DNA of 64,000 nucleotides from Gemmatimonadales bacterium (GCA_035518815.1 DATIXG010000074.1:441-64440), one strand, 5' to 3'. Shown: positions 7,661-60,607, counted from the first letter of the stretch. Translations and numbers: made by a program. The notes: generated by a model from the sequence alone, not told the origin.

Positions 7661-7670
7661 TCCGCACCCC

Positions 7671-28325: not shown

Positions 28326-30245
28326 CTAGTGCGTCAGCGGAACCAGCAGCGGCCAGTACGTGGCGATGTTGAAGTTCGTCGGCTCGACCTCGTAGTAGTG
28401 ACCCTTCGCGAAGTGGCCCGTCGTCGGGAAGTACGGCGGCGGATTGGTCGCGGCGCACTGGTCGTACGAATACCGCTTCAGGTTACCCGTACCGCTGGCC
28501 GTACCCACGGCGCCGCGCTGCTGCTGAATCACGCCACCGGTCAGGTAGAGACAGCCGCGCCCCTTGGCGAGCGTCTGGCACGGCTCCGCGCTGTTCGAGC
28601 CCTGGTCGTAGTTCTCCACGGTGAAGTTGCTGAGCGCCAGGAGGGTACCCTGGATGAACTCATCCATCGTGTCGTCCCAGGTAAAGGGATTCGTGCAGCT
28701 CGACGACGCGCAGCCCGTCGAGCTGCCCTTGGCCGGGATGGGATCGTTGATGAGGTTGTCGGCGACCACGATATCGGTGCCGCTGAACAGCCCCAGCATG
28801 TCCCGGTTCGGGGACGCACACGGCAGCCCAACCCCCGGGTCGGTGACGTACTTGATGTCGTCGGCGATGACGATGTTGTCCGTCGCCGCCAGGGTGATCT
28901 GCCCGCGGACCGTGCCGCTGACCGCCACTTTGCCCGTCACGAAAATCACGCCCTTGAAGTTCGGATTGAGGGCGCGGTTGACGGGCCACAGGTAGGCCGC
29001 ATCCCCGATCGCCGCGCGCGCGGCCGTGACCCGAGGGTCCACGGCACCCGACCACGGCAGCCACATGCCGACGGAGTCGCACGAATTCGCCGGTGAACAC
29101 GTGCCCGAGGTCGACGTAACGCCCGTCAGGAACTTGCCATGAACCGAAGACGCCGGTATGGAGTCGTTCAGAATCGGATCACCACCGAGGTAGCACCGCC
29201 TGCTGGTCCCGCCGGTGATCGCCGCCCCCGCGAGGTCTCCGGTTGTCCCGGCCGCATGGTGAGCGAACTGCTTGAAGTAGCTGTGCGTTCCCGCCAGGAT
29301 GTGGCCGCAGTTGCGGGACTTGAGCACGCCGTTTGAGGAATACGGAATTGCCACGCCGGTGGCGCTGTAGCCGCCAGTGTCCGCCACCACCCACGCCGCG
29401 TAATTGGCGACGGGGGTCCTGACCACCTGGTAGACCCTCATGAAGCCTTCGTCGACGCCGTTGGCAGTCCCGTCGCCGTTCAAGTCCACGGCCACGAACT
29501 CGATACGAGTGGTCGCCTGGCCGGCGGTGCCGGACGTCGTGCTCGTGATCGCGGTGTTTCCGATCGTCGCCTGCGCCTGGAGCTTGGTGAGATCGGCGGT
29601 CGCCGGGAACGTGATCGCCGGCGCGTTCTCGGTGTAGCCCTGCTTGAACACGCCATAGCTCTTGCCGCTGATCGTCTTGTGGGTCGCGACGGGCCCCCAG
29701 AAGGTGACCCCACCGCTGTTGATCGAGATGGCGTCGTTCGAGAACACGGGCCCGAAGATCTGGTCACCGCTACCGAACTGAATGGCTCCCTCGATGTTCG
29801 TGAAGTACGCGTACTTGGCGAAGCTCTCCTGATAGATCTCGCCCCGGCGTACCACGCGGTCTCCCTGCGTATTCTTGGTGACCACGACGGCACTGCCGAA
29901 CACGCCGAACTGGCCGCTCGTCACACCGACGGGACCAAGGTAGGTCCACCGCTTTACGTTCGGGATCAGGGTACCGTTGGCCGAATAGACGGCGACGCCG
30001 TTCTCCAGCGTGTTGTACCCGGTGTCGGGATAGAGCGCCCTGGACGCGTTCACCGCCGACCGCGCCTCTTCTAGGCCCGCGTCGGCCGCCGTCTCGAGCA
30101 CGCTCATGCGGCTGTGGTAGGTCGTGATCAGCGACGTGCTCGAGCCGAGCAACGCCGCGCCCGCGGCCACCGCCGCGATCGCCAACACGACGAGCAGCAC
30201 CACCACGAGGGCAATGCCTCGCTCGTTACGCAATACCGAACGCAT
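28326..30245 (-). CDS. Large PilX/GspK-like pilus-associated protein (set A), possible tip factor
   Basis: MRSVLRNERG/IALVVVLLVVLAI (no Glu+5), then about 600 aa of beta-rich sequence with beta-helix-like repeats (GVIFVTGKVAVSGTVRGQITLAATDNIVIADDIKYV). ATG 30245 has GGAGAGG upstream. The track ORF is over-extended to 30416. Confidence 0.65.
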   Translation of the reverse strand: MRSVLRNERGIALVVVLLVVLAIAAVAAGAALLGSSTSLITTYHSRMSVLETAADAGLEEARSAVNASRALYPDTGYNTLENGVAVYSANGTLIPNVKRWTYLGPVGVTSGQFGVFGSAVVVTKNTQGDRVVRRGEIYQESFAKYAYFTNIEGAIQFGSGDQIFGPVFSNDAISINSGGVTFWGPVATHKTISGKSYGVFKQGYTENAPAITFPATADLTKLQAQATIGNTAITSTTSGTAGQATTRIEFVAVDLNGDGTANGVDEGFMRVYQVVRTPVANYAAWVVADTGGYSATGVAIPYSSNGVLKSRNCGHILAGTHSYFKQFAHHAAGTTGDLAGAAITGGTSRRCYLGGDPILNDSIPASSVHGKFLTGVTSTSGTCSPANSCDSVGMWLPWSGAVDPRVTAARAAIGDAAYLWPVNRALNPNFKGVIFVTGKVAVSGTVRGQITLAATDNIVIADDIKYVTDPGVGLPCASPNRDMLGLFSGTDIVVADNLINDPIPAKGSSTGCASSSCTNPFTWDDTMDEFIQGTLLALSNFTVENYDQGSNSAEPCQTLAKGRGCLYLTGGVIQQQRGAVGTASGTGNLKRYSYDQCAATNPPPYFPTTGHFAKGHYYEVEPTNFNIATYWPLLVPLTH

Positions 30246-30256
30246 AGGACCTCTCC

Positions 30257-31423
30257 TCAAGGAGTGACTGAGCCACTGAGTGCCTGGGGCGACAGTGCCG
30301 GACTGCAATCCTGCGCCGCCACGGCGTAGTAGTACGTGGTACCGATGCTCACGGAGCCGTCCGTGTACGTGTAGCTCGGCGAGCCCGCCGGGATGCTCAC
30401 CAGGGGATCGCCCCAATCAGGATTCGTAGACACCCGCCGCCAGACGACGTAGCGCTCGACGTCCTTCTCGCCGGCGACCTCGTCCACCGATTGGGCCCAG
30501 GTGAGCTGCACCACGGGGACACCCGCAATCACCACGCGGCTGGCGACGGGCGCGGCGGTGGCAAACGGCGGGTCGCCGCACGACTTCGTGTTGGCTAACC
30601 CTGCGTTCGGGAGCCGGATCATGCGCGAGACCTGCCGCTTGCGCTCGTAGCTGCCGGTGCGGCCGTTGGTCACCGTGTAACTCACCCGCACCGCGCGCAG
30701 GCTGTCGATGAGCGCGAGCGCACCGGTGTCGCTCGGTGACAGGTGGATCTTGGCCGTATGCTGCAGCGGCAGGCTGCCCGCCGCCACGAGCGTGAGGGAC
30801 GGCGTACCGCCACCGAACGGCGTGATCAGACGGTAGTACTGGAGGAACGGCACACCCGACGTTTGCAGCACGTTCCGCGCGACCACTTCCGGCGCCAGGT
30901 TGTTGACCTTGCGGTACAGCAGGTAGTCGTCCGTGCGGCCGCTCGTCGAGTCCTGGACGAAGTAGAACACGATCGTTTCCGCCGCGCTGTTCGCCCCGCT
31001 CACGAAGTACGACGTGTCGGGGTACCCGAAGCTCGTCAGCGGGATCGTCGCCTTCTGCGCCTTGACCAACGCCTGTACCGCGCTGTCGGGCGCGTCCGGG
31101 TTGTAGTAGACCGCCGTCACGTCGCCCGGCGTGTTGGTCCAGTAGTTGGCGTTGAAGGCCACGACGTTCGACGACGCGTAGATCATTTGCGGCTGCTGAT
31201 CCGCCGTCGCCGCCCCCGCGGTGCGCAGGTCCTTCTCCATTTCGTTCAGCACGTAACGCGTGTTCTGGTACATCGACACGCGCTCGGTGCCGAGCTGGAA
31301 GCTCTTGCTCTGCGCCCGCAGGAACGACAGCGCGCCCGCCATTACGATCGAGAAGACGAACAACGCCAGCAACATCTCGATGAGCGTCATACCGCGCTCA
31401 TCGCGCATACGAAGGGTCGTCAT
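30257..31423 (-). CDS. PilW-like minor pilin (set A)
   Basis: DERG/MTLIEMLLALFVF prepilin motif; 388 aa. The ATG overlaps the upstream TGA (ATGA). Confidence 0.75.
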   Translation of the reverse strand: MTTLRMRDERGMTLIEMLLALFVFSIVMAGALSFLRAQSKSFQLGTERVSMYQNTRYVLNEMEKDLRTAGAATADQQPQMIYASSNVVAFNANYWTNTPGDVTAVYYNPDAPDSAVQALVKAQKATIPLTSFGYPDTSYFVSGANSAAETIVFYFVQDSTSGRTDDYLLYRKVNNLAPEVVARNVLQTSGVPFLQYYRLITPFGGGTPSLTLVAAGSLPLQHTAKIHLSPSDTGALALIDSLRAVRVSYTVTNGRTGSYERKRQVSRMIRLPNAGLANTKSCGDPPFATAAPVASRVVIAGVPVVQLTWAQSVDEVAGEKDVERYVVWRRVSTNPDWGDPLVSIPAGSPSYTYTDGSVSIGTTYYYAVAAQDCSPALSPQALSGSVTP

Positions 31424-35065: not shown

Positions 35066-35482
35066 TTACCGGCAAACCGGCGCGCCTTCGGGATCCGCCG
35101 TCGTGGCCGGAGCCGCCGGAGCCTGCGCACCCACGTAAATCGCGCAGCTCTTGGTCGTGTTCTGGTTCGTGATGCTCGCGGTCCACCCAGCCTGGGTGCC
35201 CGTGCCGACCTGCGGCGCCGCCAGCGTGTTGCCGGTCGTCGCGCAGAACGCGACCGTGCCTGCCGTCGGCGGATTGGCACAGGCGACGTTGGTGCTGTAC
35301 TTGACCGAGTCAGCGAAGTAGGCCTCTTCCGCGGTGACTAGATTACGCAGGTCGGACTTCATCGACGCGATGTAGGCCTTCTCCTTCGTGTTCGCGAACT
35401 TCGGGATCGCGATCGCGGCCAAGATGCCGATAATCACGACCACGATCAGAAGCTCAATGAGCGTAAAACCCTTGCGGTTCAT
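35066..35482 (-). CDS. pilA: Type IVa major pilin (copy 1)
   Basis: MNRKG/FTLIELLIVVVIIGILAAIAIPKF class III signal with Glu+5. 138 aa, four Cys, Thr/Ser/Pro/Ala-rich C-terminal half. Confidence 0.9.
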   Translation of the reverse strand: MNRKGFTLIELLIVVVIIGILAAIAIPKFANTKEKAYIASMKSDLRNLVTAEEAYFADSVKYSTNVACANPPTAGTVAFCATTGNTLAAPQVGTGTQAGWTASITNQNTTKSCAIYVGAQAPAAPATTADPEGAPVCR

Positions 35483-35541: not shown

Positions 35542-35557
35542 AGCAAGGGGTATGCCG
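35542..35557 (-). promoter_or_regulatory. Sigma-54 (-24/-12) promoter for pilA copy 1
   Basis: The minus strand reads CGGCATACCCCTTGCT. GG and GC sit at the exact consensus spacing of TGGCACG-N4-TTGCW, about 60 nt upstream of the ATG. Confidence 0.55.
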
Positions 35558-35710
35558 AATCAGGGGTTGCTGGGTAACTATCTACTGCACAATCACTTAC
35601 CATGATCGGCCCTGGTCCCGCAGCCCGCCGCAAGGCGGCAGAATCTCGCCTTTTGCAAGCGTCCCCGCCGGACGCAACAGAACGGTACATGCGCCCCCTG
35701 CGACGAAAAA

Positions 35711-35738
35711 AGAGCGGCGGGGAGAACCCCGCCGCTCT
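35711..35738 (-). terminator. Intrinsic terminator after pilA copy 2
   Basis: Same 12-bp stem as at 35012, loop agaa. On the minus strand it is followed by TTTTTCG. Confidence 0.65.
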
Positions 35739-35764: not shown

Positions 35765-36181
35765 TTACCGGCAAACCGGCGCGCCTTCCGGATCCGCCGT
35801 CGTGGCCGGAGCCGCCGGAGCCTGCGCACCCACGTAAATCGCGCAGCTCTTGGTCGTGTTCTGGTTCGTGATGCTCGCGGTCCACCCAGCCTGGGTGCCC
35901 GTGCCGACCTGTGGCGCCGCCAGCGTGTTGCCGGTCGTCGTACAGAACGCGACCGTGCCTGCCGTCGGCGGATTGGCACAGGCGACGTTGGAGCTGTACT
36001 TGATCGAGTCAGCGAAGTAGGCCTCTTCCGCGGTGACCAGATTACGCAGGTCGGACTTCATCGACGCGATGTAGGCCTTCTCCTTCGTGTTCGCGAACTT
36101 CGGGATCGCGATCGCGGCCAAGATGCCGATAATCACGACCACGATCAGAAGCTCAATGAGTGTAAAACCCTTGCGGTTCAT
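35765..36181 (-). CDS. pilA: Type IVa major pilin (copy 2)
   Basis: Same 138-aa architecture. Differs from copy 1 at three residues (V to I, T to S, A to T). ATG 36181; the track ORF is over-extended to 36292. Confidence 0.9.
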   Translation of the reverse strand: MNRKGFTLIELLIVVVIIGILAAIAIPKFANTKEKAYIASMKSDLRNLVTAEEAYFADSIKYSSNVACANPPTAGTVAFCTTTGNTLAAPQVGTGTQAGWTASITNQNTTKSCAIYVGAQAPAAPATTADPEGAPVCR

Positions 36182-36240: not shown

Positions 36241-36256
36241 GGCAAGCCATATGCCG
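36241..36256 (-). promoter_or_regulatory. Sigma-54 (-24/-12) promoter for pilA copy 2
   Basis: The minus strand reads CGGCATATGGCTTGCC with correct GG/GC spacing, about 60 nt upstream of the ATG. Confidence 0.55.
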
Positions 36257-36381: not shown

Positions 36382-37935
36382 TCACAAGCCTTTGGGCCGC
36401 ATGATCTTGTTGGCTCGAGCCACCAGTGAGTCCGCGGTCGCGGTGTCGCCCCGAGCCAGGGCCGCACCCGCCTCAAAGCGATAGTAATGCTCGCACCGGT
36501 AGCACAGCTCATCGAGCTTCGCGAGCAGCGAGTCCGCCGTGCTGGGCCGTCCGAGCATGAACGCTGCGTCCGCACCGGTCACATAGATCCACGGCATCTT
36601 GTCATAGATCCGCTCGGCAATACGGAATGCCGCGAGCGCTTTCTCAGGCTGATGCCGACTCAGGTACAATCGCACCATACGCGCCGGCCCATCGAACGAG
36701 CGAGGCGAATCTTGAAACTCGCTCAGGACCACCGTCGCTTCGTCCCGCCACACCGGCACACGGACGGCCGCCCGGACTCCCCCCGCCACGGCCAGCGCTA
36801 CGGCCACGGCCAGCCACCCGCGGGGGGCGGCGGTCGGAAGCCAGGCGCCGAGCGCGAGCGCGAGGCCGGCGGACGGGAGGTAGAGTGTGCGCTCGGCAAC
36901 CAGCACCCCGACCGGAAACAGCAGGTTCGCGACGGGTGAGAGGGCGATCCCGATCCACCCGAGAGCCCAGGCCTCCACCTTCCGGCCGCGGCGCCACGCG
37001 AGATAGACGAGCCCCACCCACAGGGCGACGCAGGCCAGGCCGGCCACGAACCGCACATCGAACGGCGAATCGACGAGTGTGCGCTCGGCAGGCGAGTAGT
37101 CCACGCGCAGTGTCGCGGGGAAGACGAGGAGCCGTGCGACGTCAGCGAATGCGGCGACGGCCGTCCAGCGAATCGCCAGCGGATCGGCCCCCACGAAAAC
37201 CGGGGCGATGTTGTAGATCGCGGCGTAGGCATGCAGCACCGACCACCGCACCACGCCATATACGAGCGCGAGCCCGATCCAGCCTGTCACGTACTGCGCG
37301 ACACGCCTCCGGGTCGGGTGCGCAAGACCGAGCACCCAGGCCCAAATTACGAGCCCCGGCACCACCGCCGCGTTCTCCTTGGAGAGCAGGCCGCCGGCGA
37401 GCGCGGCCAGGCTCCACCACGGCTGGTCGGCGACGAGCGCCGCGTACACGGCGAGCAACGCGAACAGCGCGGCCATCAGTTCCGCGCGCCCGACCACGTT
37501 TGCCACCGCCTCGACGTGTACGGGATGGGTGGCGAAGAGCAGGCCGGCGACGAGCGCCGCCCGGTCGCTGCTCAGACGCCGCGCGAGCAGAGCGACCGCC
37601 ACCGACGCGCCGGCGTGCCACATCACGTTCACCGCGTGGAACCATACGGTCGCGCCCCCGCTGATGCGCAGGTCGAGGGCGTAGCTCGCAATGGCAAGCG
37701 GACGGTACAGGCCGGCGCCAAGCTGCGGGGGCGAATAGGGCGCGAGGAATGCCCGCCAGATCGCGCTGGGCGACAGGAGCAACGGGTTGTAGACGATGAT
37801 GGGGATGTCGTCCCAGGCCCAGCGGTTCCCCAGCGCGCCGACGTACACGACGACGGCGCTGGCGGCGACCGCCAGGTAGAGACGCGCCGCGCTCGCGCGG
37901 GGGGCGTCGCTAGGGACGGGTGAGGCGTCGGGCAT
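36382..37935 (-). CDS. GT-C-like membrane glycosyltransferase, TMTC/DUF1736-like with short C-terminal TPR region (paralog 4)
   Basis: WAWDD after TM1, [49 protein letters not shown], about 10 TM. C-terminal DSPRSF plus TPR-like helices and CYRC. Start is ATG 37935. Confidence 0.75.
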   Translation of the reverse strand: MPDASPVPSDAPRASAARLYLAVAASAVVVYVGALGNRWAWDDIPIIVYNPLLLSPSAIWRAFLAPYSPPQLGAGLYRPLAIASYALDLRISGGATVWFHAVNVMWHAGASVAVALLARRLSSDRAALVAGLLFATHPVHVEAVANVVGRAELMAALFALLAVYAALVADQPWWSLAALAGGLLSKENAAVVPGLVIWAWVLGLAHPTRRRVAQYVTGWIGLALVYGVVRWSVLHAYAAIYNIAPVFVGADPLAIRWTAVAAFADVARLLVFPATLRVDYSPAERTLVDSPFDVRFVAGLACVALWVGLVYLAWRRGRKVEAWALGWIGIALSPVANLLFPVGVLVAERTLYLPSAGLALALGAWLPTAAPRGWLAVAVALAVAGGVRAAVRVPVWRDEATVVLSEFQDSPRSFDGPARMVRLYLSRHQPEKALAAFRIAERIYDKMPWIYVTGADAAFMLGRPSTADSLLAKLDELCYRCEHYYRFEAGAALARGDTATADSLVARANKIMRPKGL

Positions 37936-39421
37936 GTGCGAGGAGGGTGTCGGCGACGGTGGGACTGCCGAGCCGTCGGGCAACAGTCGCTTCGGTCTCA
38001 TAGAGGCTCCTGCACGGATTACAGAACCGGTTCACCCGCATGAAGAAGGAGTCCGCGACGCCATACTGCTCCAGCATGAGCGCGGCGTGGGCGCCGAGCA
38101 TGTAGGGGCGGGATTCCAGCGGGAAGGTGTCGATCGCGACCCGGGCGGCCTGGAGCGCCTTCTCGGGCTTGCTCTGCTCGAGGTAGATAGACGCCATGAT
38201 CATCGGCCCGACGTACGAGCGCGGCGAGTCCTCGAGGATGCTGAGGGTGGCCGTGACGTTGGTCTCCCAGACGGGCACGCGGAGCGCGCTGCGTATGCCC
38301 CCGAGCACGGCGAGCGCCGCCACCAGAAGCATCAGCGGACGTCCGCGCAGCTGCCGCGCGGCCCCGCCCACCGCGATCGCCAGTCCCACGGACGGGAGGT
38401 ACAGCGTCCGCTCCGCGATCAGGATTCCCACCGGAAACAGCAAGTTGGAAACAGGAGCGAACGCGAACGGCACCCATCCCAGCCCGAACGCCTCGATCTT
38501 GCGCCCACGTTGCCACGCGACGATCGCGAGGCATACCCAAACCAGGCCGCACAGCAAGCCGATCACGAAACGCGGATCGAACGGGCTGGTCACGATCGAG
38601 CGCTCGTTGGGTGAATAGTCCGCCCGCAGCTGGAGCGGGAACACGAGCAGGCGGAAGATGTCGGACCAGGCCGCAACCGCGGTGAGGCGAGCGGGAGTCG
38701 GGTGCTGCCCGACAAACACGGCCGCGATGATGTAGGCGGGGTCGTACTGCCGCAGCACGAGGTGCCGCACCACTCCGTAGGCCGCACCCGCGACTACCCA
38801 GCTCGCACAGAACACGAACATGGCGCGCCTGGGCGGCCGGCCGATACCCGCTGCCCAGGCCAACGCGATGAGGCCGGGGGCCACGGCTGCGTTTTCCTTG
38901 CACAGCAGCGCCAGGATCCAGCACGCCGTGCTCCACGCAACGCTGCGGCGCTCGATGGCCGCGTACAGCATGAGCAGCGTGAATACCGTCGCCATCAATT
39001 CAGCGCGGCCGACGACCTGCGCGACCGCTTCAACGTGCAGCGGATGTACCGCGAAGAGCACGCCCGCCACGAGCGCGGCTGTCGTGTTGATCCAGCGTCG
39101 CGCGAGCACGGACACGAGCACCGATGCGGCCGCGTGCCACAGGATGTTCACGGCGTGGAACAGCGCCGGGCCGTCCAGGTGCCAGTCGAGCACATAGGTC
39201 GCGACCGTCAGGGGCCGGTACAGATAGGCGCCAACCTCGGGAGGCCAATAGGACGTCCCGAAGGCTTTCCACCATCCGTCGGACGAATGGACGAGGGTGC
39301 TGCCGAGGATGATCTGCAGATCGTCGAGCGCCCAACGGTTCGACAGGGCGCCGAGGTAGACGAGGATGGCACAGGCGGCGACGGCCCCGTACAGGCGCCA
39401 GGACTCCCGATCCATTGTCAC
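37910..39421 (-). CDS. GT-C-like membrane glycosyltransferase, TMTC/DUF1736-like (paralog 3)
   Basis: WALDD, YRPLTVATYVLDWHLDGPALFHAVN, LFAVHPLHVEAVAQVVGRAELMA; C-terminal DSPRSY, TPR-like region, CNPC. GTG 39421 overlaps the upstream TGA. Confidence 0.75.
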   Translation of the reverse strand: MTMDRESWRLYGAVAACAILVYLGALSNRWALDDLQIILGSTLVHSSDGWWKAFGTSYWPPEVGAYLYRPLTVATYVLDWHLDGPALFHAVNILWHAAASVLVSVLARRWINTTAALVAGVLFAVHPLHVEAVAQVVGRAELMATVFTLLMLYAAIERRSVAWSTACWILALLCKENAAVAPGLIALAWAAGIGRPPRRAMFVFCASWVVAGAAYGVVRHLVLRQYDPAYIIAAVFVGQHPTPARLTAVAAWSDIFRLLVFPLQLRADYSPNERSIVTSPFDPRFVIGLLCGLVWVCLAIVAWQRGRKIEAFGLGWVPFAFAPVSNLLFPVGILIAERTLYLPSVGLAIAVGGAARQLRGRPLMLLVAALAVLGGIRSALRVPVWETNVTATLSILEDSPRSYVGPMIMASIYLEQSKPEKALQAARVAIDTFPLESRPYMLGAHAALMLEQYGVADSFFMRVNRFCNPCRSLYETEATVARRLGSPTVADTLLAHARRLTRP

Positions 39422-40911
39422 CGCTGGTGCGCCCGTGACGCGTGGGCCAGGAGCGAGTCCGCGACGGCGTCATCGCCGAGCCGGCGTGCGAGATCGGCCT
39501 CGATGCGATAGTAGCCGAGACAGGCGTTGCAGATGCGATCGCCTTGAACCAACAGCTCGGCCGCCTGCGCGGGCCGCCCGAGCTTCAACGCCGCATGCCC
39601 CCCCACGATGTAGGATCGCGCGTCCCAGGGGACCATACGAATCGCAATCTGAGCCGCTTGGAGGGCCTTCTCATCTTGCCGATCGATGAGGAGGAGCGAC
39701 GCCGACAGCATGAATCCGAGGTAGGAATGAGGCGAGTCCCTCATGACGCTTTGGATGACGGAGTTCTCATCCCGCCAGACGGGGACCCGCAGCGCGCTAC
39801 GCACGCCCCCCGCGACCGCCACGGCGGCCACGAGGACCGCGAGTCCTCGCCCGCGCAGCTCCGCAGCCAGTGCGCCCACGGCCACGGCAAGGCCAACCGA
39901 TGGCAGGTACAGGGTCCGCTCGGCGACCAGCACCCCGATTGGAAACAACAGATTCGCGACCGGCGCGAAGGCCAGCGCGAGCCAAGCGATCCCAAACGCC
40001 TCCACCCGCCGGCCCCGCCGACGCGCCAGCATGAACCAGAGCACCCATGCGGCCAGCGATATGACACCGGCGAGGACCCGCCCATCGAAGATGCTCGTCA
40101 CCGCCGTGCGCTCCGCCGGCGAGTAGTCGATCCGCAGCTTGAGCGGCAGGACGAGCAAGCGCGTCACGTCGGCTAGCGCGGCGATCGCCGTGAGGCGCAC
40201 GGTTGTGAGCGGCTGGCCGACGAACACGGGAGCGATGAAGGACGGATAGGCCTGGAGAACGTGCTCCCTGAGCAGCGCGTAGCCGATGCCGGCCACGGCC
40301 CACCATGCCGCGAACACCCCCATGCGACCCGGGGCGGGGCGCGAGAACCCGAGCACCCACGCCGCCCCGATCAAAGCAGGCGCGACGATCGCGTTCTCCT
40401 TGCTCAGCAGGCCAAGGATCCAGCACGCCGTGCTCCACGCGACGCTGTGCCGCTCCACGGCCGCGTACACTGCCAGCAGGGTGAACGCCGCCGCCATCAG
40501 CTCCGAGCGCCCCACCACGCTCGCCACCGCTTCGACATGCACGGGGTGAACGGCGAACAGCACGCCGCCGACGAGAGCCGCGGCGGCGCCGCACCAGGTG
40601 TAGAGCAGCGCGGCCACGAGCACGGAGACGCCCGCGTGCCACGCCACGTTGACCGCATGGAACAGCGCGGGACCGTCCAGGTGCCAGTCCAGCACGTAGC
40701 TGGCGACGGTGAGGGGCCGGTAGAGCTGGCCGCCCTGCTCTCGGTTCCAGTAGGGGTGCACGAAAGCGCTCCACAACCCGCTCCACGAATGCACCAGATC
40801 ATTGTACGTGACGATCTCGAGATCGTCTCCGCCGAACGTGTTCCAGAGCGCGCCGATGTACACGACGACGGCGCAGGCGGCGACCAGGAGGTAGACCTGC
40901 CTACGGCTCAC
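39418..40911 (-). CDS. GT-C-like membrane glycosyltransferase, TMTC/DUF1736-like (paralog 2)
   Basis: FGGDD, YRPLTVASYVLDWHLDGPALFHAVN, LFAVHPVHVEAVASVVGRSELMA; C-terminal DSPHSY, TPR-like region, CNAC. GTG 40911 overlaps the upstream gene by 11 nt. Confidence 0.75.
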   Translation of the reverse strand: MSRRQVYLLVAACAVVVYIGALWNTFGGDDLEIVTYNDLVHSWSGLWSAFVHPYWNREQGGQLYRPLTVASYVLDWHLDGPALFHAVNVAWHAGVSVLVAALLYTWCGAAAALVGGVLFAVHPVHVEAVASVVGRSELMAAAFTLLAVYAAVERHSVAWSTACWILGLLSKENAIVAPALIGAAWVLGFSRPAPGRMGVFAAWWAVAGIGYALLREHVLQAYPSFIAPVFVGQPLTTVRLTAIAALADVTRLLVLPLKLRIDYSPAERTAVTSIFDGRVLAGVISLAAWVLWFMLARRRGRRVEAFGIAWLALAFAPVANLLFPIGVLVAERTLYLPSVGLAVAVGALAAELRGRGLAVLVAAVAVAGGVRSALRVPVWRDENSVIQSVMRDSPHSYLGFMLSASLLLIDRQDEKALQAAQIAIRMVPWDARSYIVGGHAALKLGRPAQAAELLVQGDRICNACLGYYRIEADLARRLGDDAVADSLLAHASRAHQR

Positions 40912-42427
40912 TACGGACTCCGAAGAGCGCCCCGCCGTTGGCCCAGCGGCGCCGCAGCTCGAACCGCGCCGGATAGGCGGTGAGCAGGCGCTGCAGCTCA
41001 GTGAGCCCGCCCTCGTCTCCCGCGGCGACGAGCAGGTGGGTCACGCCCTGACGGTCGAGATAGGCGCGGTGCACGGCCGGAGGCGGCTCGAGCACCTGAT
41101 TCCCGCGCATGCGGTAGACGTAGAGGGGCACGGCCAGCCGGCGCGTGTAGAGCCACACCAGGGGGTCGTGGTCGGTGGCTACCACGGCGTTCTGAGGAAG
41201 GGAATCGAGCGCGGGGAGCATGTCGCCCAGCGTGTCGGACATCCGGGCGGCGGCGAGATCCCACCATTGATGGGCAAAGCCACGCGCCTCGTAGCGCGCG
41301 TAGCCGCCGACGAGAATCGCCGCCAGCACCGCGACGGGTATGCGCAGGCGGGTATGGCGCCACAAGGCGACCGCGCCAGCCGCCCAGCCGAGGGCGATCC
41401 ATGGAAGGACGGCCCAGAGAAATCGATCCGGCGGCACGGGCCAGCACGCGAGCAGCGCGAGGTACAACACGAGAGCGCCTCCGATCGCCGACCGGCGAGC
41501 GAGCTCGACGAGCCCGTAGAAGCCCACGGCGAGCGCCGCGATGCCGCACGCGTAGTATGCGGGGCCCGTCACCGTCCAACTCAGCGTCAGCACGCCGAGC
41601 GGGCGGACGAGATCCGTCACGCGCGCTCCCACCATTGCGACGCCGGAACCCGCTACCAGCTCGAGGTAGGATCCGTAGTCCGACCCGATGATGGGGTCGA
41701 TGCCGCCCTGGTGGATCATCACCCAGGCCCCCCACCCGAGCCCCGCCACGATGGAGGGAGCCGCCGCCAGGGCCACGCGGCGCCAACCGGCCGCCCGTCC
41801 CTCCTGGACGCGGTGGACGTGCGTGAAGTAGGTCCACACGACAACCCCCGCGGCCACCGCGCCGCCCAGCGACCGAGCGAGAAATGCGAGCGCCGCCGCC
41901 GCTCCCGAGATCAAGGCCGCGGCGTCCGGGGAGAACCGGCCCGGCGTCGGGCGATCCGCGAAGATCACGGCCACCGCGACGAACAGCGTGAAGACGGGCT
42001 CCGAGAGCAGCACCGTCAAGACCGTGAGGCACGGAATCGACAGAGCGGCGGCCACGACGACGCATCCGGGCAGCCAGGCAGGCCCACCGATCAGCCGAAT
42101 GCGCATCGCATGCCACACGATCAAACCGGACGATGCCGCGGCGCACAGCATGTTGAAGGCCTTGCCGACGAGCGCAGCGGTCGACACGGGCCATAAGCCG
42201 AACAGCGGCGACAGGATGACCGGATACAGCGGCGGGTAGTGCACGGCGACCGGCCGGCCCGGCAGGTTCGGATGCACGTACCCGAGACCGTGCGCCAGGG
42301 CCCAGGCGAGATTGGCGTATTGTGCGTCGTCGTAGAAGACGCCTACGAGGTGATGGTTCGACGTGAGGAGGCCGCCCGCGAGGGTCGCGAGGGCAGCGGC
42401 CAGCCCGGCGCGGCGAGGAGTCAGCAT
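40901..42427 (-). CDS. Polytopic membrane protein, ArnT/PMT-like GT-C candidate without TPR
   Basis: 508 aa, more than 10 hydrophobic segments, FYDDAQYANLAWAL acidic motif after TM1, soluble C-terminal domain of about 110 aa. The family assignment is inference only. Confidence 0.6.
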   Translation of the reverse strand: MLTPRRAGLAAALATLAGGLLTSNHHLVGVFYDDAQYANLAWALAHGLGYVHPNLPGRPVAVHYPPLYPVILSPLFGLWPVSTAALVGKAFNMLCAAASSGLIVWHAMRIRLIGGPAWLPGCVVVAAALSIPCLTVLTVLLSEPVFTLFVAVAVIFADRPTPGRFSPDAAALISGAAAALAFLARSLGGAVAAGVVVWTYFTHVHRVQEGRAAGWRRVALAAAPSIVAGLGWGAWVMIHQGGIDPIIGSDYGSYLELVAGSGVAMVGARVTDLVRPLGVLTLSWTVTGPAYYACGIAALAVGFYGLVELARRSAIGGALVLYLALLACWPVPPDRFLWAVLPWIALGWAAGAVALWRHTRLRIPVAVLAAILVGGYARYEARGFAHQWWDLAAARMSDTLGDMLPALDSLPQNAVVATDHDPLVWLYTRRLAVPLYVYRMRGNQVLEPPPAVHRAYLDRQGVTHLLVAAGDEGGLTELQRLLTAYPARFELRRRWANGGALFGVRSEP

Positions 42428-42434
42428 CCGGCGG

Positions 42435-44048
42435 TCACGACCGATGTTCGGCGATGCGCGCCGCCAGGTGCCGGGACAACCAATCCGACCAGACGGTCCG
42501 GCCCCGCCACCGGGCCTCCATCACCGCCGCCTGGTAAAACGTCACGCAGTTCACGCAAGTCGAGTCGACGTGGGCGATCAGCGAATCGACCAGCGCAACC
42601 CGGCCGAGGCGAAACGCGACCTCCGCCGCGTGCAGGGTCAGCCGGTTGTCCGAGGGAAGGAGGCGCGCGGCGCGACGGTAGGCCTCAAGCGCGTCGTCGA
42701 GGCGACCTTCGGTCTCCGCGTACCGCGCGGCGATCGCCGGACCGAAGTACGAGCGTGGCGAGTCCCGCACGACGCTCTGGTACACCGTTTCGGTGCTCTC
42801 CCACACCGGCACGCGCAGCGCCACGCGCACGCCACCGGCGACCACCACCAGCGCGACGGCCGCGTCGGCCCAACGGCGGGCGGCGGCGCCGATGGTCGGT
42901 CGCCATGCCGCGAGCCCTGCCCCCACGGCCAGCGCGAGGCCGACCGACGGCAAATAGAGGGTCCGCTCGGCCACCAGGACGCCGGACGGAAACACCAGGT
43001 TCGACACGGGGGCGAGCGCGATGCCGATCCATGCGACGCCGAATGTCTCGACCCGCCGGCGGCGGCGCCACAGCGACCACAGAAGCCCACCCCACAGGAG
43101 GAGGCAAGCAAGGCCCGCGAGGAAGCGCGGATCGGCCACGCTGGTGACGGCGGTCCGCTCCATGGGGGAGTAGTCGGCGCGGAGGTGCCACGGAAACACG
43201 AGCAGGCGCGTGACGTCCGCCAGGGCTGCCACCGCGGTGAGCCGCACGCCCAGCGGCGACTGGCCCAGGAAGACGATGGCCAACCCCGCGGTGACCGGGT
43301 ACGGCCGGAACACGGCGTACCGCAGGAGCGCCCACGCGATGCCGATCGCGCACCACACGCCGACGTACGCCGCGATGCGCCGCCGCGCCGGGCGGCCGAA
43401 CCCGAGCAGCCAGGCCGTACCCACCAGCGCTGGGACGACGACCGCATTCTCCTTGCAGAGGAGCCCCAGCGTCCACGCCACCGCGCTCCAGACGAGACGG
43501 TCGTTCTCCACGGCAAGCCACACCGCGAGGATCGTGAAGAGCGCGGCCAGGAGCTCGGCGCGCCCTACGACGTTGGCCACGGCCTCGACGTGCGCCGGAT
43601 GGACCGCGAACAACGCGCCGGCGATGACGCCCGCCGTGAGGCCGGCCCAGCGCCGGGCGAGAAGCGCGACCGCGGCGCTCACCCCGGCGTGCCACGCGAT
43701 GTTGACGCCGTGGAGCCACCAAGCGCGCCACGGCGCGATAAGCCAGTCCAGGGTGTACGTCGCGAGGACGAGGGGCCGGTAGAGGTGCCCGCCGCGCGGC
43801 GGCGGCCAGTACGGCACCGCGAACGCGCGCCAGAATCCACTCGCGCGGTGGACAAGGCCGTTGTCCTCAACGAGGGGAACGTCGTCCCAGGCGAAGCCGT
43901 TCGCGAGCGCGCCCAGGTAGATGACCGCGGCGAGCGCCGCGATCGCAGCCGCGAGCCGTCGCGCGGCGGCGCCGTCCTCAGCGCCGCCCGGCACTATCGG
44001 GGCGAAACAGGTTGTACCGGAGAATGTGGAAGAGTGCCGCGACGCCAT
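42435..44048 (-). CDS. GT-C-like membrane glycosyltransferase, TMTC/DUF1736-like (paralog 1)
   Basis: [40 protein letters not shown]; C-terminal DSPRSY, TPR-like region, CVNC. Start is ATG 44048 or GTG 43994; both overlap the GT2 3' end. The track ORF is over-extended to 44153. Confidence 0.75.
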
Positions 44049-44685
44049 CGCGCCAAGTGATCTTCTTTCCCTCCGCGTAGGTGCGGCCACTGTAGGAAAT
44101 GGGCAGCTCCCAGATCCGCGCGCCCGCCTGCGCAAGCCGCGCGGTGATCTCAACTTCGAAGCCGAACCGGTTGGCGGTGAGCGGCAAGCGTTTCATCAAA
44201 TCGGCCCGGACCAGCTTGTAGCACGTCTCCATGTCCGTCAGGTTCAGGTTCGTGAACATGTTGGACAGGAGGGTCAGTACCCGGTTCCCGACCGCATGCC
44301 AGAAGTAGAGCACGCGATGCGGGCCGCCCTGGAAGCGGGAGCCGAAAACCGCGTCGGCCCTTCCGTCCAGGATGGGTTTCAGCAGCGTGGGGAGCTCATC
44401 GGGATCGTACTCGAGGTCCGCGTCCTGGATCACGACGACGTCGCCCGTGGCGAGGGCGATGCCCGACCGGATCGCGGCGCCCTTGCCCCGGTTTACGGGG
44501 TGGCGCTGCAGCGCGTCGAGCCGGCCCGCGCCCCGGAGCCGTTCGAGCACGCTGTCCGAGCCGTCTACCGATGCGTCGTCGATGGCAATCACCTCGATCT
44601 GCAGCGGCACCGCGCGCACCCGTTCTACTACCTGCTCAATCGTCGTTGCTTCGTTGTAGACGGGAATCAGAACCGACAGCTTCAC
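43978..44685 (-). CDS. GT2 family glycosyltransferase, polyprenyl/dolichyl-phosphate sugar synthase type (DPM1/Ppm1/GtrB-like)
   Basis: [54 protein letters not shown] (DxD). 235 aa with no TM. GTG 44685 overlaps the regulator TGA. Confidence 0.8.
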
Positions 44686-46097
44686 GCCTCCGTCCCCGCC
44701 CCAGCCCCCGTCCCTGCGACCGTCTTGGTCACGCCGTCGTAGCGGCTCAGCTTGCGATACAGGGTCGATGGGTCGATACCGAGCACCTCCGCCGCGCGGG
44801 TCTTGTTGCCGCCTTCGCTCTGCAGCACCCACGTGATGTAGGCTTGTTCGATCACATCGAGCGTGGGGTTCACGTGCGGGCGCTCCGCTACGAGCGGCTC
44901 GGCCCGCCGCTCACTGATCTTGGCGGGCATGGCATCGAGCCCGATCGTCTCGCCCTTGGTCAGCACCCCCGCTCGCTCGAGCGCGTTCTCGAGCTCTCGC
45001 ACGTTCCCCGGCCAGTCATAGCTCATGATCGCATCGAAGGCTTCGGCATCGAGCCGTTTGGGCGGCTCGCCGCGCTCGACCGCGATGCGCTCGAGGAATG
45101 CCTTGACGAGGATCTCGATATCGTCGCGGCGGTCGCGCAGCGGCGGCAGGTGAATCGCGATCACGTTGAGGCGGTAGTACAAATCGGTGCGGAAACGGCC
45201 GCGCTTGATGTCCTCTTCCAGGTCGCGGTTCGTCGCCGCCACCACGCGGACGTCCACGGGGATCGCTTCCGTCCCGCCCACCGGGATCGCTTCCCGCTCC
45301 TGCAGCACGCGGAGCAGCTTCACCTGCGTGGCGGGCGACATCTCGCCGATCTCATCGAGGAAGAACGTGCCGCCGCGTGCGGCCGCGAACAGGCCCTGTT
45401 TGTCGCGAACCGCGCCGGTGAATGAGCCTTTCACGTGCCCGAACAGCTCCGACTCGAGGAGGCTTTCGGGCAGCGCGCCGCAGTTGATCGACAGGAATGG
45501 GCCTTCGCTGCGCGTCGAGAGCTCGTGGATGTAGCGGGCGATGACCTCCTTGCCCGTCCCCGACTCTCCCTGAATGAGCACCGTGCTTTCGGTCGGGGCA
45601 ACCTGTTCGGCCAGCCTCAGGACGTCCTGGAAGGCGCGTGCCTTGCCCAGAGGCTTGTCCAACCCGGAGCGCTCGCGGCGGCGGATCTCCTGCTTCAGCT
45701 GCTTGTTCTCTGCCTTGAGACGCCGCACCTCTCCGGCGCGGCGGCACAGCGCGACGATCTCGTCGTTGGAAAAGGGCTTCTGGACGTAGTGGAACGCGCC
45801 TTCGTTCACCGCCTGGATGGCGCTCTGGAGGGATGCTTGGGCGGTCATGAGGATGACCGGCGTCTCGGGGTCCTGCTCCTTCACGGCAGCCAGGATCTCG
45901 ATTCCGGTCACGCCGGGCATCTTGATGTCCGTCAAGACGATATCCGGGGCGGCCGTCTTGATCTGCTCCAGGCCCGCCTTGCCTCCCTGCGCGGTGATGA
46001 CGTCGAACCCCTCGTTCTTGAGGAGGATGCGCAGGGTGTCGAGGATGCCCTGCTCGTCGTCGACAACGAGGATCGAGGGCTGTGCGCTGTCGTGCAT
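44682..46097 (-). CDS. Sigma-54-dependent response regulator (NtrC/PilR family)
   Basis: Canonical receiver ([25 protein letters not shown]), [30 protein letters not shown], Fis [19 protein letters not shown]. Confidence 0.9.
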
Positions 46098-46199: not shown

Positions 46200-47879
46200 C
46201 TAGGCGAGCGCCGGTGCCGGTTGCTCCACCCGCGCTCTGGCGGGGAAATGGATGGTGAAGGTTGTCCCCCGTCCTGCAACGGATTGCACGAAGACGATTC
46301 CGCGATGGGCGTCCACGGCGCGTTGGACGATGGCCAGGCCAAGTCCGGTGCCACCCCCCGCCGCCCGACCGGTAACGAACGGCTCGAACAAGCGGGGCCG
46401 CACGGTCTCCGGAATGCCCGGGCCGTTGTCGCTGACGCGGAGGAACACCGGGTTCTCGATTCCCGCGCCACCTGGCAATTCGCGCGCGTCCGAGCGGCCC
46501 GTTTGCACGACGACCTGGGCGCCGGCGCCCGCGGCCTGGACGGCGTTCAGGACGAGGTTCGAGACCACGCGATGCAGCAGGTCTTCATCGCCTTCCATGG
46601 AAGCGACCTCGCCCTCGAGCGTGATACGCGCATCGGCGGCGCAGTCGGGATGCTCGCGCACCACGCGAATCGCGGCGGCGGCCACGCGCTGCAGGTCCAG
46701 GGGGCGGCATTCGGTCACGCGGACGCGCGAGAAGTCGAGGAATTCCGACAGCAGGCGTGTCAGCCGGTCGCTTTCGCGCACGATCAGTCCGGCCAGGACG
46801 TGGTCGTCGGCGTTGGAGCGTTTCGGGCGGGCGAGCTGCTCCACCGACGAGCGGATGGAGGCGAGCGGGTTCTTGATCTCGTGCGCCAGGCTGGCCGACA
46901 GCTCGGCCACGGCTTCCAGGCGCTCGGTGCGGAGGTGCAGCTCCTCCAGCCGTTTCGAGTCGGAGATGTCGGTGAAGATGGCCGTGACGCGTGGCGGCCC
47001 TGCGGGCGGCGCTTCGAGGGTCGTGGTGGTCACGCCGATGGGGAACGTGCGGTCGGGGCGGCGCACCGTGGCTTCGACGCGCATGGCGCGCACCCCGCGA
47101 CGGGCGGTGGCCGTGATCGCGGCCCAGAATTCGGGGGCCATGCGCGCGAACTCCGGCATGATCGGCCGCGTGCGCCAGTCGCGCTCGTGGAAGCCGAGGA
47201 TGTGCTCGGCGGCCGGATTGCAATACAGGAGGAGGCCGTCGCCGTCCACCGTTACAACACCGGTCGGGATGTTCCGCAGCACGTCCGACGCTTCGAGCCT
47301 CGCCTGACGCAGCTCCCCGGCGAGCGCGACGCGCTCCGCCTCCATGACCGAGACCCGGCTCGAGAAGTACGCCGTGACGGCGGCAACGGCCGCGAACAAG
47401 GCAAGCTGGACCCCGATGTTCGGCGTCATCGCGGTGCGGTGGCCGAAGAAGACGTCGGCCAAATACACCATGCCCACGAGCACCGTGACGAGACCCGTGT
47501 TGGCGGGCGGCATGAGGACCGCGGCCACCGCGATGAGCGGCACGTAGAGCGACGTGAAGTCGCTCTGGGGTCCGCCGGTCATATGGACCACGGCCGTCAC
47601 GAGCGCCGTGTCGAAGAGCGCCTGGAGGTATACGAAGGTCGGACCCGGCGCTCGGTCCCGGACATGCGTGTACCAGTACGACGGGATGGTGACGACGACG
47701 GCGGCTACGAGCAGGAGCGAAGCGACGAGGATATCCGTCGGGGTGGCGACCGTGACGCGGAGCGCCGCGCTCAGATAGATCGCGATCGCCACGCACATCC
47801 GCCCGATGTAGACCGAGCGGAGGAGGGCCCGGGGACTCGGCATCGCCGACGCCCGCGTCCGCCGGCCGAGCCAGCTCAT
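46200..47879 (-). CDS. Sensor histidine kinase: multi-TM N-terminus, PAS, HisKA, HATPase (PilS-like architecture)
   Basis: About six hydrophobic segments in the first 180 aa, PAS (GVVTVDGDGLLLYCNPAAEHILG), H-box SASLAHEIKNPLASI, DNGPGI, GTGLGLAIV. Confidence 0.85.
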   Translation of the reverse strand: MSWLGRRTRASAMPSPRALLRSVYIGRMCVAIAIYLSAALRVTVATPTDILVASLLLVAAVVVTIPSYWYTHVRDRAPGPTFVYLQALFDTALVTAVVHMTGGPQSDFTSLYVPLIAVAAVLMPPANTGLVTVLVGMVYLADVFFGHRTAMTPNIGVQLALFAAVAAVTAYFSSRVSVMEAERVALAGELRQARLEASDVLRNIPTGVVTVDGDGLLLYCNPAAEHILGFHERDWRTRPIMPEFARMAPEFWAAITATARRGVRAMRVEATVRRPDRTFPIGVTTTTLEAPPAGPPRVTAIFTDISDSKRLEELHLRTERLEAVAELSASLAHEIKNPLASIRSSVEQLARPKRSNADDHVLAGLIVRESDRLTRLLSEFLDFSRVRVTECRPLDLQRVAAAAIRVVREHPDCAADARITLEGEVASMEGDEDLLHRVVSNLVLNAVQAAGAGAQVVVQTGRSDARELPGGAGIENPVFLRVSDNGPGIPETVRPRLFEPFVTGRAAGGGTGLGLAIVQRAVDAHRGIVFVQSVAGRGTTFTIHFPARARVEQPAPALA

Positions 47880-48134: not shown

Positions 48135-48866
48135 ATGACTTGTCATGCCTGCGGTGCCACCCTCGCGCCCACGGCGCGGTTCTGCCACAAATGCGGCGCT
48201 GCCACTCAGGGCGCCACCCCGACCGGCTGGCGCGCGGGCCTCCCCTGGGCCCTCGCCGGTGCCGCGCTCGGCGCGCTCATCGCGGTCGTCGGCCTCCGCT
48301 TTTCGGGAAGCTCAGGCGGTGGATCCTTCGAAAGCCAGAGCGCTCCACCACCCTTTGCCGGAGCGCCGCCCATGGCCGGCGGCGGGGGGGGCGGAGGCGG
48401 CATGGCCCCGCCGGACATCAGCCGGATGTCGCCCGAGGAACGCGCCAACCGGCTGTACAACCGCATCATGACGCTGCATTCCGCGGGCAAGACGGACAGC
48501 GCGGAATTCTTCCTGCCGATGGCCCTGCAGGCCTACGCCATGCTGCCCGCGCTGGATATCGACGCGCGCTATCATGTGGGAGTGCTGCATCTGACGGGAG
48601 GCGATGCCGCGGGCGCGATGGCGCAGGCCGACACGATTCTGCGCCAGGCCCCGACGCATCTGTTCGGATTCGTGCTCCGTGCGCACGCGTCCGAGCTGCG
48701 CAAGGATCCGAGCGGCGTCCAGCAGGCCTATCGCGATTTCCTGCGCAACGAGGCCGCCGAACGGGCGCGCCAGTTGCCGGAGTACGCCGACCACGCCCAG
48801 AACCTCGACTCGTTCCACGAGCAGGCCGCGCAAGCCACGAAGGGTGCCGGGAAGGCCGGGACGTAA
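48135..48866 (+). CDS. Zinc-ribbon membrane protein with poly-Gly linker and helical C-terminal domain
   Basis: MTCHACGATLAPTARFCHKCGAAT zinc ribbon, one TM (LPWALAGAALGALIAVVGL), G8 stretch, TPR-like helices. The only plus-strand gene between 883 and 60575. Confidence 0.6.
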   Translation: MTCHACGATLAPTARFCHKCGAATQGATPTGWRAGLPWALAGAALGALIAVVGLRFSGSSGGGSFESQSAPPPFAGAPPMAGGGGGGGGMAPPDISRMSPEERANRLYNRIMTLHSAGKTDSAEFFLPMALQAYAMLPALDIDARYHVGVLHLTGGDAAGAMAQADTILRQAPTHLFGFVLRAHASELRKDPSGVQQAYRDFLRNEAAERARQLPEYADHAQNLDSFHEQAAQATKGAGKAGT

Positions 48867-53020: not shown

Positions 53021-53443
53021 TCAATGGGCGGGCGGCTCCACCCCCGAAAAAGTGACGAAACGACGCACCACGTCCAGCAGGCGGGGGCCGACCCCCGGCA
53101 CGCTGTCCAGGCGTTCAAGACTGCCAAACGGACCGTGTTCGGTGCGCCAGGCGACGATCCGCTCTGCCAGTGAGGGCCCGACGCGAGGGAGGCGCGTGAT
53201 CTCCGTCACGTCCGCGCGGTCGAGGTCCACCCGCTCGCCTGGCAGGAGCGGGCGGGAGAGGCGTTCGGCGGTGTGCGCGCGTTGCGCGAGGCCGCTCTCG
53301 GGCGGTGTGTCCACCGGCATGAGCCTCACGTCGCCCGGGGCGGCTGCGGCGGACTGTCCCGTCCGAGGCGAGAGGCCGTAGCGCACCCCCGCGCCCACGA
53401 GGGCGAGCGCGCTCAAGAGCAGGGCGGCACGGCGGTCGTCCAT
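53021..53443 (-). CDS. comEA: ComEA-like helix-hairpin-helix DNA-binding protein
   Basis: TM anchor, then VDLDRADVTEITRLPRVGPSLAERIVAWRTEHGPFGSLERLDSVPGVGPRLL (tandem HhH). ATG 53443; the track ORF is over-extended to 53506. Confidence 0.75.
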   Translation of the reverse strand: MDDRRAALLLSALALVGAGVRYGLSPRTGQSAAAAPGDVRLMPVDTPPESGLAQRAHTAERLSRPLLPGERVDLDRADVTEITRLPRVGPSLAERIVAWRTEHGPFGSLERLDSVPGVGPRLLDVVRRFVTFSGVEPPAH

Positions 53444-53502
53444 GGAGCCAATGTGACGGTGCGCCCGTACACAGCGGTACCCGTTCTGCGCGGGGAGCGC
53501 CG

Positions 53503-53548
53503 GCAAATTGCCGAAGTCGGAAGGCGGAAGGCGGAACAGAACGAACCG
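53503..53548 (-). other. Nested hairpin with GGAAGGC repeats downstream of the M28 gene
   Basis: gaagtcggaa (53503-53512) pairs with ttccgacttc (53539-53548). Inner pair cggaac/gttccg. ggaaggc occurs twice in tandem. Adjacent palindrome cggcaaattgccg at 53491-53503. Confidence 0.3.
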
Positions 53549-60575: not shown

Positions 60576-60578
60576 CCC

Positions 60579-60607
60579 TTGTAGAGGCGTGGAGGTGCGA
60601 ATATAAT
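60579..60607 (+). promoter_or_regulatory. Sigma-70-type promoter candidate (TTGTAG-17-TATAAT) in the sprA-like/lptF divergent gap
   Basis: A perfect TATAAT at 60602-60607 overlaps the track ATG of lptF (60606). TTGTAG lies at 60579-60584 with a 17-nt spacer. Confidence 0.3.

Follow-up and report, generated by a model that had tools for sequence, protein, structure and literature searches.

Here, we describe a six-gene island of a Gemmatimonadales bacterium (phylum Gemmatimonadota, soil), located within a stretch of 64,000 nt (GCA_035518815.1 DATIXG010000074.1:441-64440; from here: the window). The island encodes a predicted polyprenyl-phosphate sugar synthase (GT2), four paralogous membrane proteins of the type of the metazoan TMTC protein O-mannosyltransferases (T_A to T_D) and a further membrane protein with a predicted GT-C fold (X). 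These genes stand between the regulatory gene pilR and two type IV pilin genes, and this order recurs across the phylum. The island probably serves the type IV pilus as a dedicated module for periplasmic glycosylation, which would O-glycosylate the pilin using a polyprenyl-phosphate monosaccharide.

The six genes are co-directional on the minus strand and fill exactly positions 36382–44685. The gene for the soluble, 235-aa GT2 (43978–44685) is followed by those for T_A (519 aa; 42435–43994), X (508 aa; 40901–42427), T_B (497 aa; 39418–40911), T_C (501 aa; 37910–39415) and T_D (517 aa; 36382–37935), the copy closest to the pilins. The overlaps amount to 17 nt for GT2/T_A, 11 nt for X/T_B and 26 nt for T_C/T_D, and the remaining two junctions are gaps of 7 and 2 nt. 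At the upstream end, the stop codon of pilR (44682–46097, minus strand) overlaps the start of GT2 in a GTGA junction that was read from the sequence, and because of this coupling the island is probably expressed together with pilS-pilR. The coordinates were taken from an open reading frame (ORF) listing, with which a separate gene call for this contig agreed. They confirm the inventory given by an earlier reading of the window from its sequence alone (from here: the sequence-only reading), according to which six co-directional, overlapping genes lie upstream of two pilin genes.

The T proteins, 497–519 aa in length, share 50–58% pairwise identity (58% between T_B and T_C) and carry in common the blocks xDD, YRPL, FHxVN and LFAxHPxHVEAVAxVVGR(A/S)EL, which had been proposed to be a TMTC signature and whose key residues vary little or not at all among 140 relatives. 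The proposal was borne out by profile comparisons. A profile built from the membrane domain of the T proteins (A5) was aligned to human TMTC3 across the whole domain, end to end (hhalign probability 99.96%, E 4e-39, 381 columns), and the same profile reached 250 bits against TMTC3 in hmmsearch (E 3e-73 at PDB-sized Z). T_B alone showed 28% identity to TMTC3 across 381 aa in BLASTP (E 3e-31), and phmmer searches with each of the window paralogs matched TMTC3 at E-values from 4e-33 (T_A) over 4e-28 (T_C) to 2e-24 (T_D). Searched against the whole PDB, including ArnT, Pmt1/2/4, STT3, PglB, AglB, Emb and Aft, the A5 profile matched no chain at E ≤ 10, and T profile A1 also found no GT-C chain among the PDB sequences. 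The matches of a full-length profile of the broad family (A4) to the PDB were dominated by TPR proteins, with OGT and consensus TPR at E 1e-42 to 1e-142. Since the match to TMTC3 runs end to end and no GT-C chain of the PDB was matched, the T proteins are, by sequence, specifically members of the TMTC family and not generic GT-C proteins. The sequence-only reading had allowed that profile searches might place the paralogs in a non-glycosyltransferase family; they were placed in the TMTC family instead, which is GT105 in the CAZy classification (PMC10214176).

For the TMTC family, the motifs M1–M7 have been published as DD, SHKSYRP, RxD, KE(T/Q)xxT, DW, PxxP and ERxxY (PMC7801869). In the T proteins, DD, the KE of M4 and ERxxY are kept, RxD reads RxE, YRP alone is left of SHKSYRP, DW is changed to DY, and PxxP is absent with P-x6-P in its place. 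Counted by motif, four of the seven occur in full, one with a conservative change (DY), one in part (YRP) and one not as written. Conservation was assessed for 140 T proteins encoded at related loci, among which DD, RxE, KE and ERxxY are invariant or nearly so, and the residues D29, D30, R65, P66, H85, H125, E127, K171, E172, Y263 and R332 are invariant. As the catalytic residues are invariant, all T copies look catalytically competent from their sequences. Membership by sequence in the PMT/GT39 or ArnT/GT83 families was not found: the Pfam model PMT_2 was matched at the borderline by T_D (26.6 bits, cut-off 26.1), below the cut-off by T_A (22.9 bits) and not by T_B or T_C, and the likeness to ArnT is one of fold. 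NCBIfam holds no family for T or X. In Pfam scans, no island protein matched the Wzy_C domain, and an O-oligosaccharyltransferase of the PglL/TfpO type was rejected on this ground.

An AlphaFold2 (AF2) model of T_B (pLDDT 87) consists of about 11 transmembrane (TM) helices and, after them, a helical repeat of eight short helices spanning residues 382–496. When compared by Foldseek, this tail matched TPR proteins (MamA and the TPR of OGT), while the membrane part matched ArnT and STT3 weakly. The global match of the model is weak (ArnT, TMq 0.38) because of its two-domain, all-helical architecture, and is taken as support at the level of the fold alone. Together with weak Pfam TPR matches in the C-terminal region (below threshold in T_A), these results agree with the claim that the paralogs end in a short TPR-like region. 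The odd number of TM helices and the known TMTC topology predict a periplasmic location for this domain. Among the Gemmatimonadales, the T proteins form two groups, T1, to which all four window copies belong (T_D to the main T1a subfamily), and T2. A CxxC pair is located within the TPR-like domain, at residues 461–464 of T_B (window ~39520–39531), with equivalents in T_A, T_C and T_D; it is confined to the T1 subfamily and was found in 66 of the 140 T proteins.

GT2 matches Glycos_transf_2 (PF00535) at 1.7e-31. Its best match in the PDB is the Dol-P-Man (dolichol-phosphate mannose) synthase of Pyrococcus (5mlz; 1.1e-15 over residues 1–212), followed by ArnC and GtrB, and its best NCBIfam matches, all under the cut-off, are AglJ, PpgS and a Dol-P-hexose transferase. 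GT2 is predicted to be a soluble enzyme of the type of these synthases, for which DPM1/Ppm1 had been suggested, and with 235 aa is far shorter than the solved relatives (322–374 aa). X has no Pfam match of its own, but its AF2 model (pLDDT 88) matched GT-C structures in Foldseek with E-values down to 1e-6, namely AglB, ArnT (TMq 0.53), AftD, AftA, STT3 and ALG9. The GT-C fold of X is therefore clear at the level of the model, which also shows a C-terminal alpha/beta domain and no TPR. An invariant YDD follows TM1. Pfam GT87 was matched by seven of 35 X homologs (best 5e-6) and not by the window X itself, which may be called weakly GT87-like; a search of the PDB sequences with the X profile (A3) retrieved no GT-C chain. 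X was considered as a fifth T paralog and rejected, since the hhalign probability between T and X was about 1%. Comparison of the predicted structures, which the sequence-only reading had proposed, hence pointed to TPR proteins for the T tail, weakly to ArnT/STT3 for the T membrane part and to GT-C structures for X. A synthase resembling Dol-P-Man synthase (DPMS) beside an X of GT-C fold fits the idea of a lipid-monosaccharide donor combined with GT-C transferases.

Related loci were collected by scanning GTDB with each species represented by one genome, which yielded 78 loci, all from Gemmatimonadota and covering Gemmatimonadales, Gemmatimonadaceae and Longimicrobiales. The window proteins were mapped onto these loci, with counts based on 50–51 of them. 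PilR was encoded upstream of the GT-C genes at 49 of 51 loci, GT2 was present at 41 of 51, and a pilin gene followed within 1 kb downstream at 37 of 50; at a further three loci at least, GT2 was the sole gene between the last GT-C gene and the pilin. The expected conservation of TMTC-like genes next to pilA was thus found across the phylum. The copy number per related locus was 1–3 for T (four in the window), 0–2 for X and 1–3 for the pilin. The same gene order, with an extra methyltransferase gene, was found on a 440-kb JGI contig. At locus L001, a gene at 7177–7800 that is absent from the window encodes a 207-aa S-adenosylmethionine-dependent methyltransferase between pilR and GT2; this enzyme may methylate the sugar or the pilin. 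A pilR-GT2 gap of equal size exists at many other Gemmatimonadales loci.

The subfamily of the T protein encoded next to the pilin was found to track the type of pilin. A T2 member in this position goes with a pilin of 122–127 aa and two cysteines (about 21 Gemmatimonadales loci), a T1 member with a pilin of 129–142 aa and four cysteines (nine loci including the window), and in our reading of the locus table there was no exception where the pilin directly follows. This covariation argues for a functional coupling between T and pilin. On a neighbour-joining (NJ) tree of PilR, loci with T2 and with T1 as the last T gene are interleaved, which suggests that T and pilin genes are exchanged as cassettes.

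The window encodes two copies of a type IVa major pilin of 138 aa on the minus strand, pilA1 (35765–36181; four cysteines, N_methyl 2e-9, N-terminal match to NCBIfam PilA_Myxo) and pilA2 (35066–35482; N_methyl ~2e-9), with 98% nucleotide identity. They differ at eight of 417 nt and at three amino acids, and two of these changes involve Ser or Thr (S/T59 and T/A76, numbered in the mature pilin). In the globular part, serine and threonine account for 22% of the residues of the window pilins and for an average of 27% among related pilins, and a conserved S/T pair directly follows helix alpha-1. A sigma-54-type −24/−12 element, CGGCAT-N5-TTGC, is located 61 nt upstream of pilA1 (36242–36256, minus strand) and again 61 nt upstream of pilA2 (35543–35557, minus strand). 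Elements of this type occur 53–80 nt upstream of 46 of 65 related pilin genes vs 5.4% of background windows. The island therefore lies between pilR and the promoters that PilR is likely to target. The regions upstream of pilA1 and pilA2 have diverged apart from the sigma-54 core and the ribosome-binding site. After pilA1, a hairpin plus T-run resembling an intrinsic terminator was read from the sequence (35705–35738, minus strand; AGAGCGGCGGGG-TTCT-CCCCGCCGCTCTTTTTT).

Based on these findings, we propose the following scheme, in which the pilin as the acceptor, the O-linkage, the nature of the sugar and the division of labour among the paralogs are parts that we infer. At the cytoplasmic face, GT2 would take a monosaccharide from a nucleotide sugar and attach it to polyprenyl phosphate, as expected from its family. 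The lipid-linked sugar would then be flipped by a factor for which no candidate was found among the scanned ORFs, which leaves a gap in the model. In the periplasm, the four TMTC/GT105-type enzymes would use a conserved pocket of DD, YRP, KE, DY and ERxxY to transfer the sugar to the hydroxyl groups of Ser/Thr in the membrane-anchored pilin before its assembly, with the short TPR-like domain recognising the acceptor. Separate paralogs may serve separate sites or pilin types, and X, lacking a TPR, would probably extend or branch the glycan. The pilins themselves would be driven from their own sigma-54 promoters.

Several observations weigh against this scheme. A scan of window ORFs revealed no flippase of the GtrA, SMR or MATE type, which may be encoded elsewhere; the self-contained system of the sequence-only reading was not supported in this respect. 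The TPR-like region of the T proteins, with about 115 aa or 3–4 hairpins, is much shorter than in TMTC or in TfpW, a pilin glycosyltransferase of Pseudomonas aeruginosa. The TMTC3 sequence used in the comparisons is a written-out one that was checked against PMC7801869, where it agrees with 19 of 19 residue positions in Table 4 and with a 17-residue fragment (118–134). Hidden Markov model searches, which the sequence-only reading had recommended, gave a divided result, with a strong PF00535 match for GT2 but a borderline PMT_2 match among the T proteins and values below the gathering score for Pfam TMTC_DUF1736, where the window T proteins reach 13–19 bits (T_C 18.6, T_D 19) against a cut-off of 27. 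Sub-threshold DUF1736 matches were also seen in 25 of 36 close relatives. More distant relatives pass the cut-off and carry canonical TPRs (e.g. P0381, 35.4 bits), and precomputed PF08409 matches, given without a score, exist for pilin-locus orthologs in Gemmatimonadaceae, such as P0484 on the L052 contig with the order pilS-pilR-GT2-T-T-T-pilA. As for the genomic evidence, the island is not directly followed by a pilin at about nine of 50 related loci, the PilR tree carries no support values, and TMTC-like genes of Gemmatimonadota also occur at loci without pilins. Another TMTC-like relative sits in a PMT-rich cluster. At L081, L082 and L083 (Gemmatimonadota), TMTC-like genes for proteins of ~600 aa form a second conserved locus beside genes for a DUF3592 protein and an amino-acid permease, with neither pilin nor GT2.

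Such non-pilin loci imply that the wider family is not pilin-specific, and they lend some weight to an alternative that we consider unlikely, though the best of those weighed here, namely that the island performs general O-glycosylation of periplasmic or surface proteins, in the manner of mycobacterial Pmt or Neisseria PglL. The pilin would then be one client among others and the position of the locus would reflect co-regulation. The superfamily is very large, with 83,185 representative clusters at E ≤ 1e-3, and none of the representative matches outside the phylum showed linkage to a pilin, their contexts being non-pilin or their contigs too short to judge. Moreover, several TPR-bearing paralogs could correspond to several client classes, as in TMTC1–4. 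A general role is harder to reconcile with the near confinement of the T1 and T2 subfamilies to the interval between pilR and pilA and with the covariation of the proximal T subfamily and the pilin type.

Less probable still is a non-protein acceptor, such as lipopolysaccharide core or O-antigen, exopolysaccharide or an envelope glycan, modified as by GtrABC, ArnT, YfhO or the mycobacterial GT87/Emb enzymes, with the adjacency to pilA being incidental. A GT2 next to GT-C proteins is the classic layout of three-component glycan modification (PMC11127046), and X resembles enzymes with lipid or glycan acceptors (ArnT, Aft and GT87). However, the homology of the T proteins is specifically to a family of protein O-mannosyltransferases, and they carry a protein-binding TPR module, the pilR/pilA synteny is conserved across orders of the phylum, and no genes for polysaccharide synthesis or export were found inside the island. 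That the T proteins lack catalytic activity and serve as TPR-bearing membrane scaffolds when the pilus is assembled, as JGI labels of some relatives ('Tfp pilus assembly protein PilF' or 'TadD') would have it, is highly improbable in view of GT-C catalytic and ligand-binding motifs that are invariant in 140 proteins, the co-encoded lipid-sugar synthase and a TMTC homology that spans the full membrane domain; a PilF/TadD-like assembly factor was rejected, as these labels come from TPR matches alone.

Beyond a module for pilin glycosylation, a wider proposal may be put forward tentatively, and we hold it to be somewhat more doubtful than not. The pil loci could represent the first natural context of bacterial GT105/TMTC enzymes, which would act there as pilin-specific O-glycosyltransferases with an operon-encoded polyprenyl-phosphate sugar synthase, in paralog arrays matched to pilin types or sites and swapped as cassettes, plausibly under phage pressure. 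If this were true, the metazoan machinery for cadherin O-mannosylation would descend from a bacterial adhesin-glycosylating system.

The surroundings of the island contain a complete set of type IVa pilus genes, which makes the island the core of a type IVa pilus supercluster. On the minus strand, the order is pilB-pilT-pilC, a Thx gene, pilS, pilR, GT2, T_A, X, T_B, T_C, T_D, pilA1 and pilA2. Farther on the same strand follow a second histidine kinase and sigma-54 regulator, several minor pilins, pilMNO and pilQ. The PilS-type sensor histidine kinase (46200–47879, minus strand; Pfam 6TM_PilS, PAS, HisKA and HATPase_c) has a conserved place upstream of PilR in related loci, and PilR is a sigma-54-dependent response regulator with Response_reg, Sigma54_activat and HTH_8 domains. 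Between pilC and pilS, the Thx gene is preceded by a 164-aa ORF on the opposite strand (48372–48866, plus strand), which was rejected as a flippase because its product is soluble and has no Pfam match. The gene directly upstream of pilB (53021–53506, minus strand) codes for a DNA-binding HHH_3 protein resembling ComEA, and on account of this gene the pilus may serve in DNA uptake. Two proteins without a Pfam family are encoded within the cluster on the minus strand, one of 845 aa just after pilQ (18394–20931), called an Ig-repeat protein and taken as a perhaps additional acceptor in the sequence-only reading, and one of 696 aa whose gene (28326–30416) stands among those of the minor pilins, at a place like that of PilY1.

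Just past the pilus cluster, an ORF of 2174 aa (54477–61001, minus strand) has SprA_N as its sole Pfam match (8.7e-14), which resembles the translocon of gliding motility and type IX secretion. At 4047–5741 (minus strand), a protein of 564 aa combines a [FeFe]-hydrogenase-like large-subunit domain, 4Fe-4S ferredoxin modules and a C-terminal GGDEF domain and may, judged by these domains, be a redox- or H2-sensing cyclic di-GMP synthase; the gene next to it (5755–7251) encodes a sigma-54 activator. The G+C content of the window is 66–72% along most of its length, and the homologs of its proteins come almost exclusively from metagenome-assembled genomes of Gemmatimonadales or Gemmatimonadota.

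TMTC enzymes are disease-relevant in humans. Their bacterial homologs comprise more than 80,000 sequence clusters, and no published function was found for any of them; in the literature searched, there was no report on the function of a bacterial TMTC protein or on pilin glycosylation in Gemmatimonadota. The PDB copy searched contained no solved TMTC structure, and we found no report of TMTC activity in vitro. An operon that combines a donor synthase, TMTC-type transferases and a small, abundant and easily purified candidate substrate would offer a tractable model for catalysis, for the choice of acceptors by the TPR and for paralog specificity. If our interpretation is true, the island is the first functional setting proposed for TMTC enzymes in bacteria. 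It would also add a major soil phylum to the bacteria with pilin glycosylation and bear on the arms races between pili and phages; glycosylation of the pilus is reported to block pilus-specific phages (bioRxiv 150227).

Among the known systems, the three-component GtrA/GtrB/Gtr* systems have a GT2 lipid-sugar synthase and a GT-C enzyme using a lipid-monophosphate sugar (PMC11127046), both of which are predicted for the island. The island differs in that no flippase was found in the scanned window ORFs, that its predicted acceptor is a protein and not O-antigen or teichoic acid, and that its GT-C proteins belong to another family. In the actinobacterial Ppm1/Pmt (GT39) system, a polyprenyl-phosphate-mannose synthase of the DPM1 type is combined with a GT-C protein O-glycosyltransferase acting on the outer face of the membrane, a pairing like that predicted for the island. 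However, the T profile did not match Pmt structures at E ≤ 10 and PMT_2 matches were borderline, and Pmt proteins lack a TPR and their genes are not linked to pilins.

Closer by sequence are the metazoan TMTC1–4, Dol-P-Man-dependent O-mannosyltransferases of cadherins and protocadherins, whose 11-TM GT-C domain is homologous to that of the T proteins over its full length. Both groups have the motifs DD, YRP, RxE/D, KE, D-aromatic and ERxxY, a non-cytoplasmic TPR (predicted for T) and several paralogs per genome; the clients of TMTC are adhesion proteins, as would be the pilin. In contrast, TMTC1–4 act in the endoplasmic reticulum instead of a bacterial periplasm and have 8–10 TPRs instead of the 3–4 TPR-like hairpins of T, which in turn lacks SHKS of M2 and PxxP of M6 and has DY for DW. 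The T1 group has the additional conserved CxxC, and the island operon carries a dedicated GT2.

Of the characterised systems, the nearest is the TfpW system of P. aeruginosa group IV, compared here by its published description. TfpW has 646 aa, 11 TM helices, an essential DDx in loop 1 and a periplasmic C-terminal TPR, and was best modelled on ArnT and the TPR of OGT; its gene lies next to pilA, and it modifies several Ser/Thr residues of the pilin with D-arabinofuranose (D-Araf) taken from a polyprenyl-phosphate donor (bioRxiv 10.1101/2020.04.19.049825). The sequence-only reading had described TfpW as a GT-C enzyme and was aware of no characterised bacterial TMTC-like protein glycosylation system; this claim of novelty was too strong, because TfpW combines a GT-C domain of 11 TM with a TPR and its gene lies beside pilA, the same architecture and genomic logic as in the island. 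The likeness extends to the DDx in loop 1 and to the donor, a monosaccharide on polyprenyl phosphate produced in the cytoplasm, which is predicted for the island. In P. aeruginosa, accessory gene and pilin type travel together, and the T/pilin pattern of Gemmatimonadota resembles such cassettes. The differences concern the donor, which is made via phosphoribosyl pyrophosphate (PRPP) and DprE1/DprE2 for TfpW and would be made by a DPMS-type GT2 in the island, and a scan of window ORFs revealed neither DPPR synthase nor DprE1/DprE2 genes of the D-Araf pathway. Furthermore, there is one TfpW as compared to 1–4 T paralogs plus the extra GT-C protein X, tfpW lies downstream of pilA whereas the island lies upstream of pilA and is coupled to pilR, and the T tail is far shorter, in another phylum. 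Judged from these comparisons, the island would be a variant of pilin glycosylation by GT-C plus TPR enzymes from a lipid-monosaccharide donor, conserved across the phylum.

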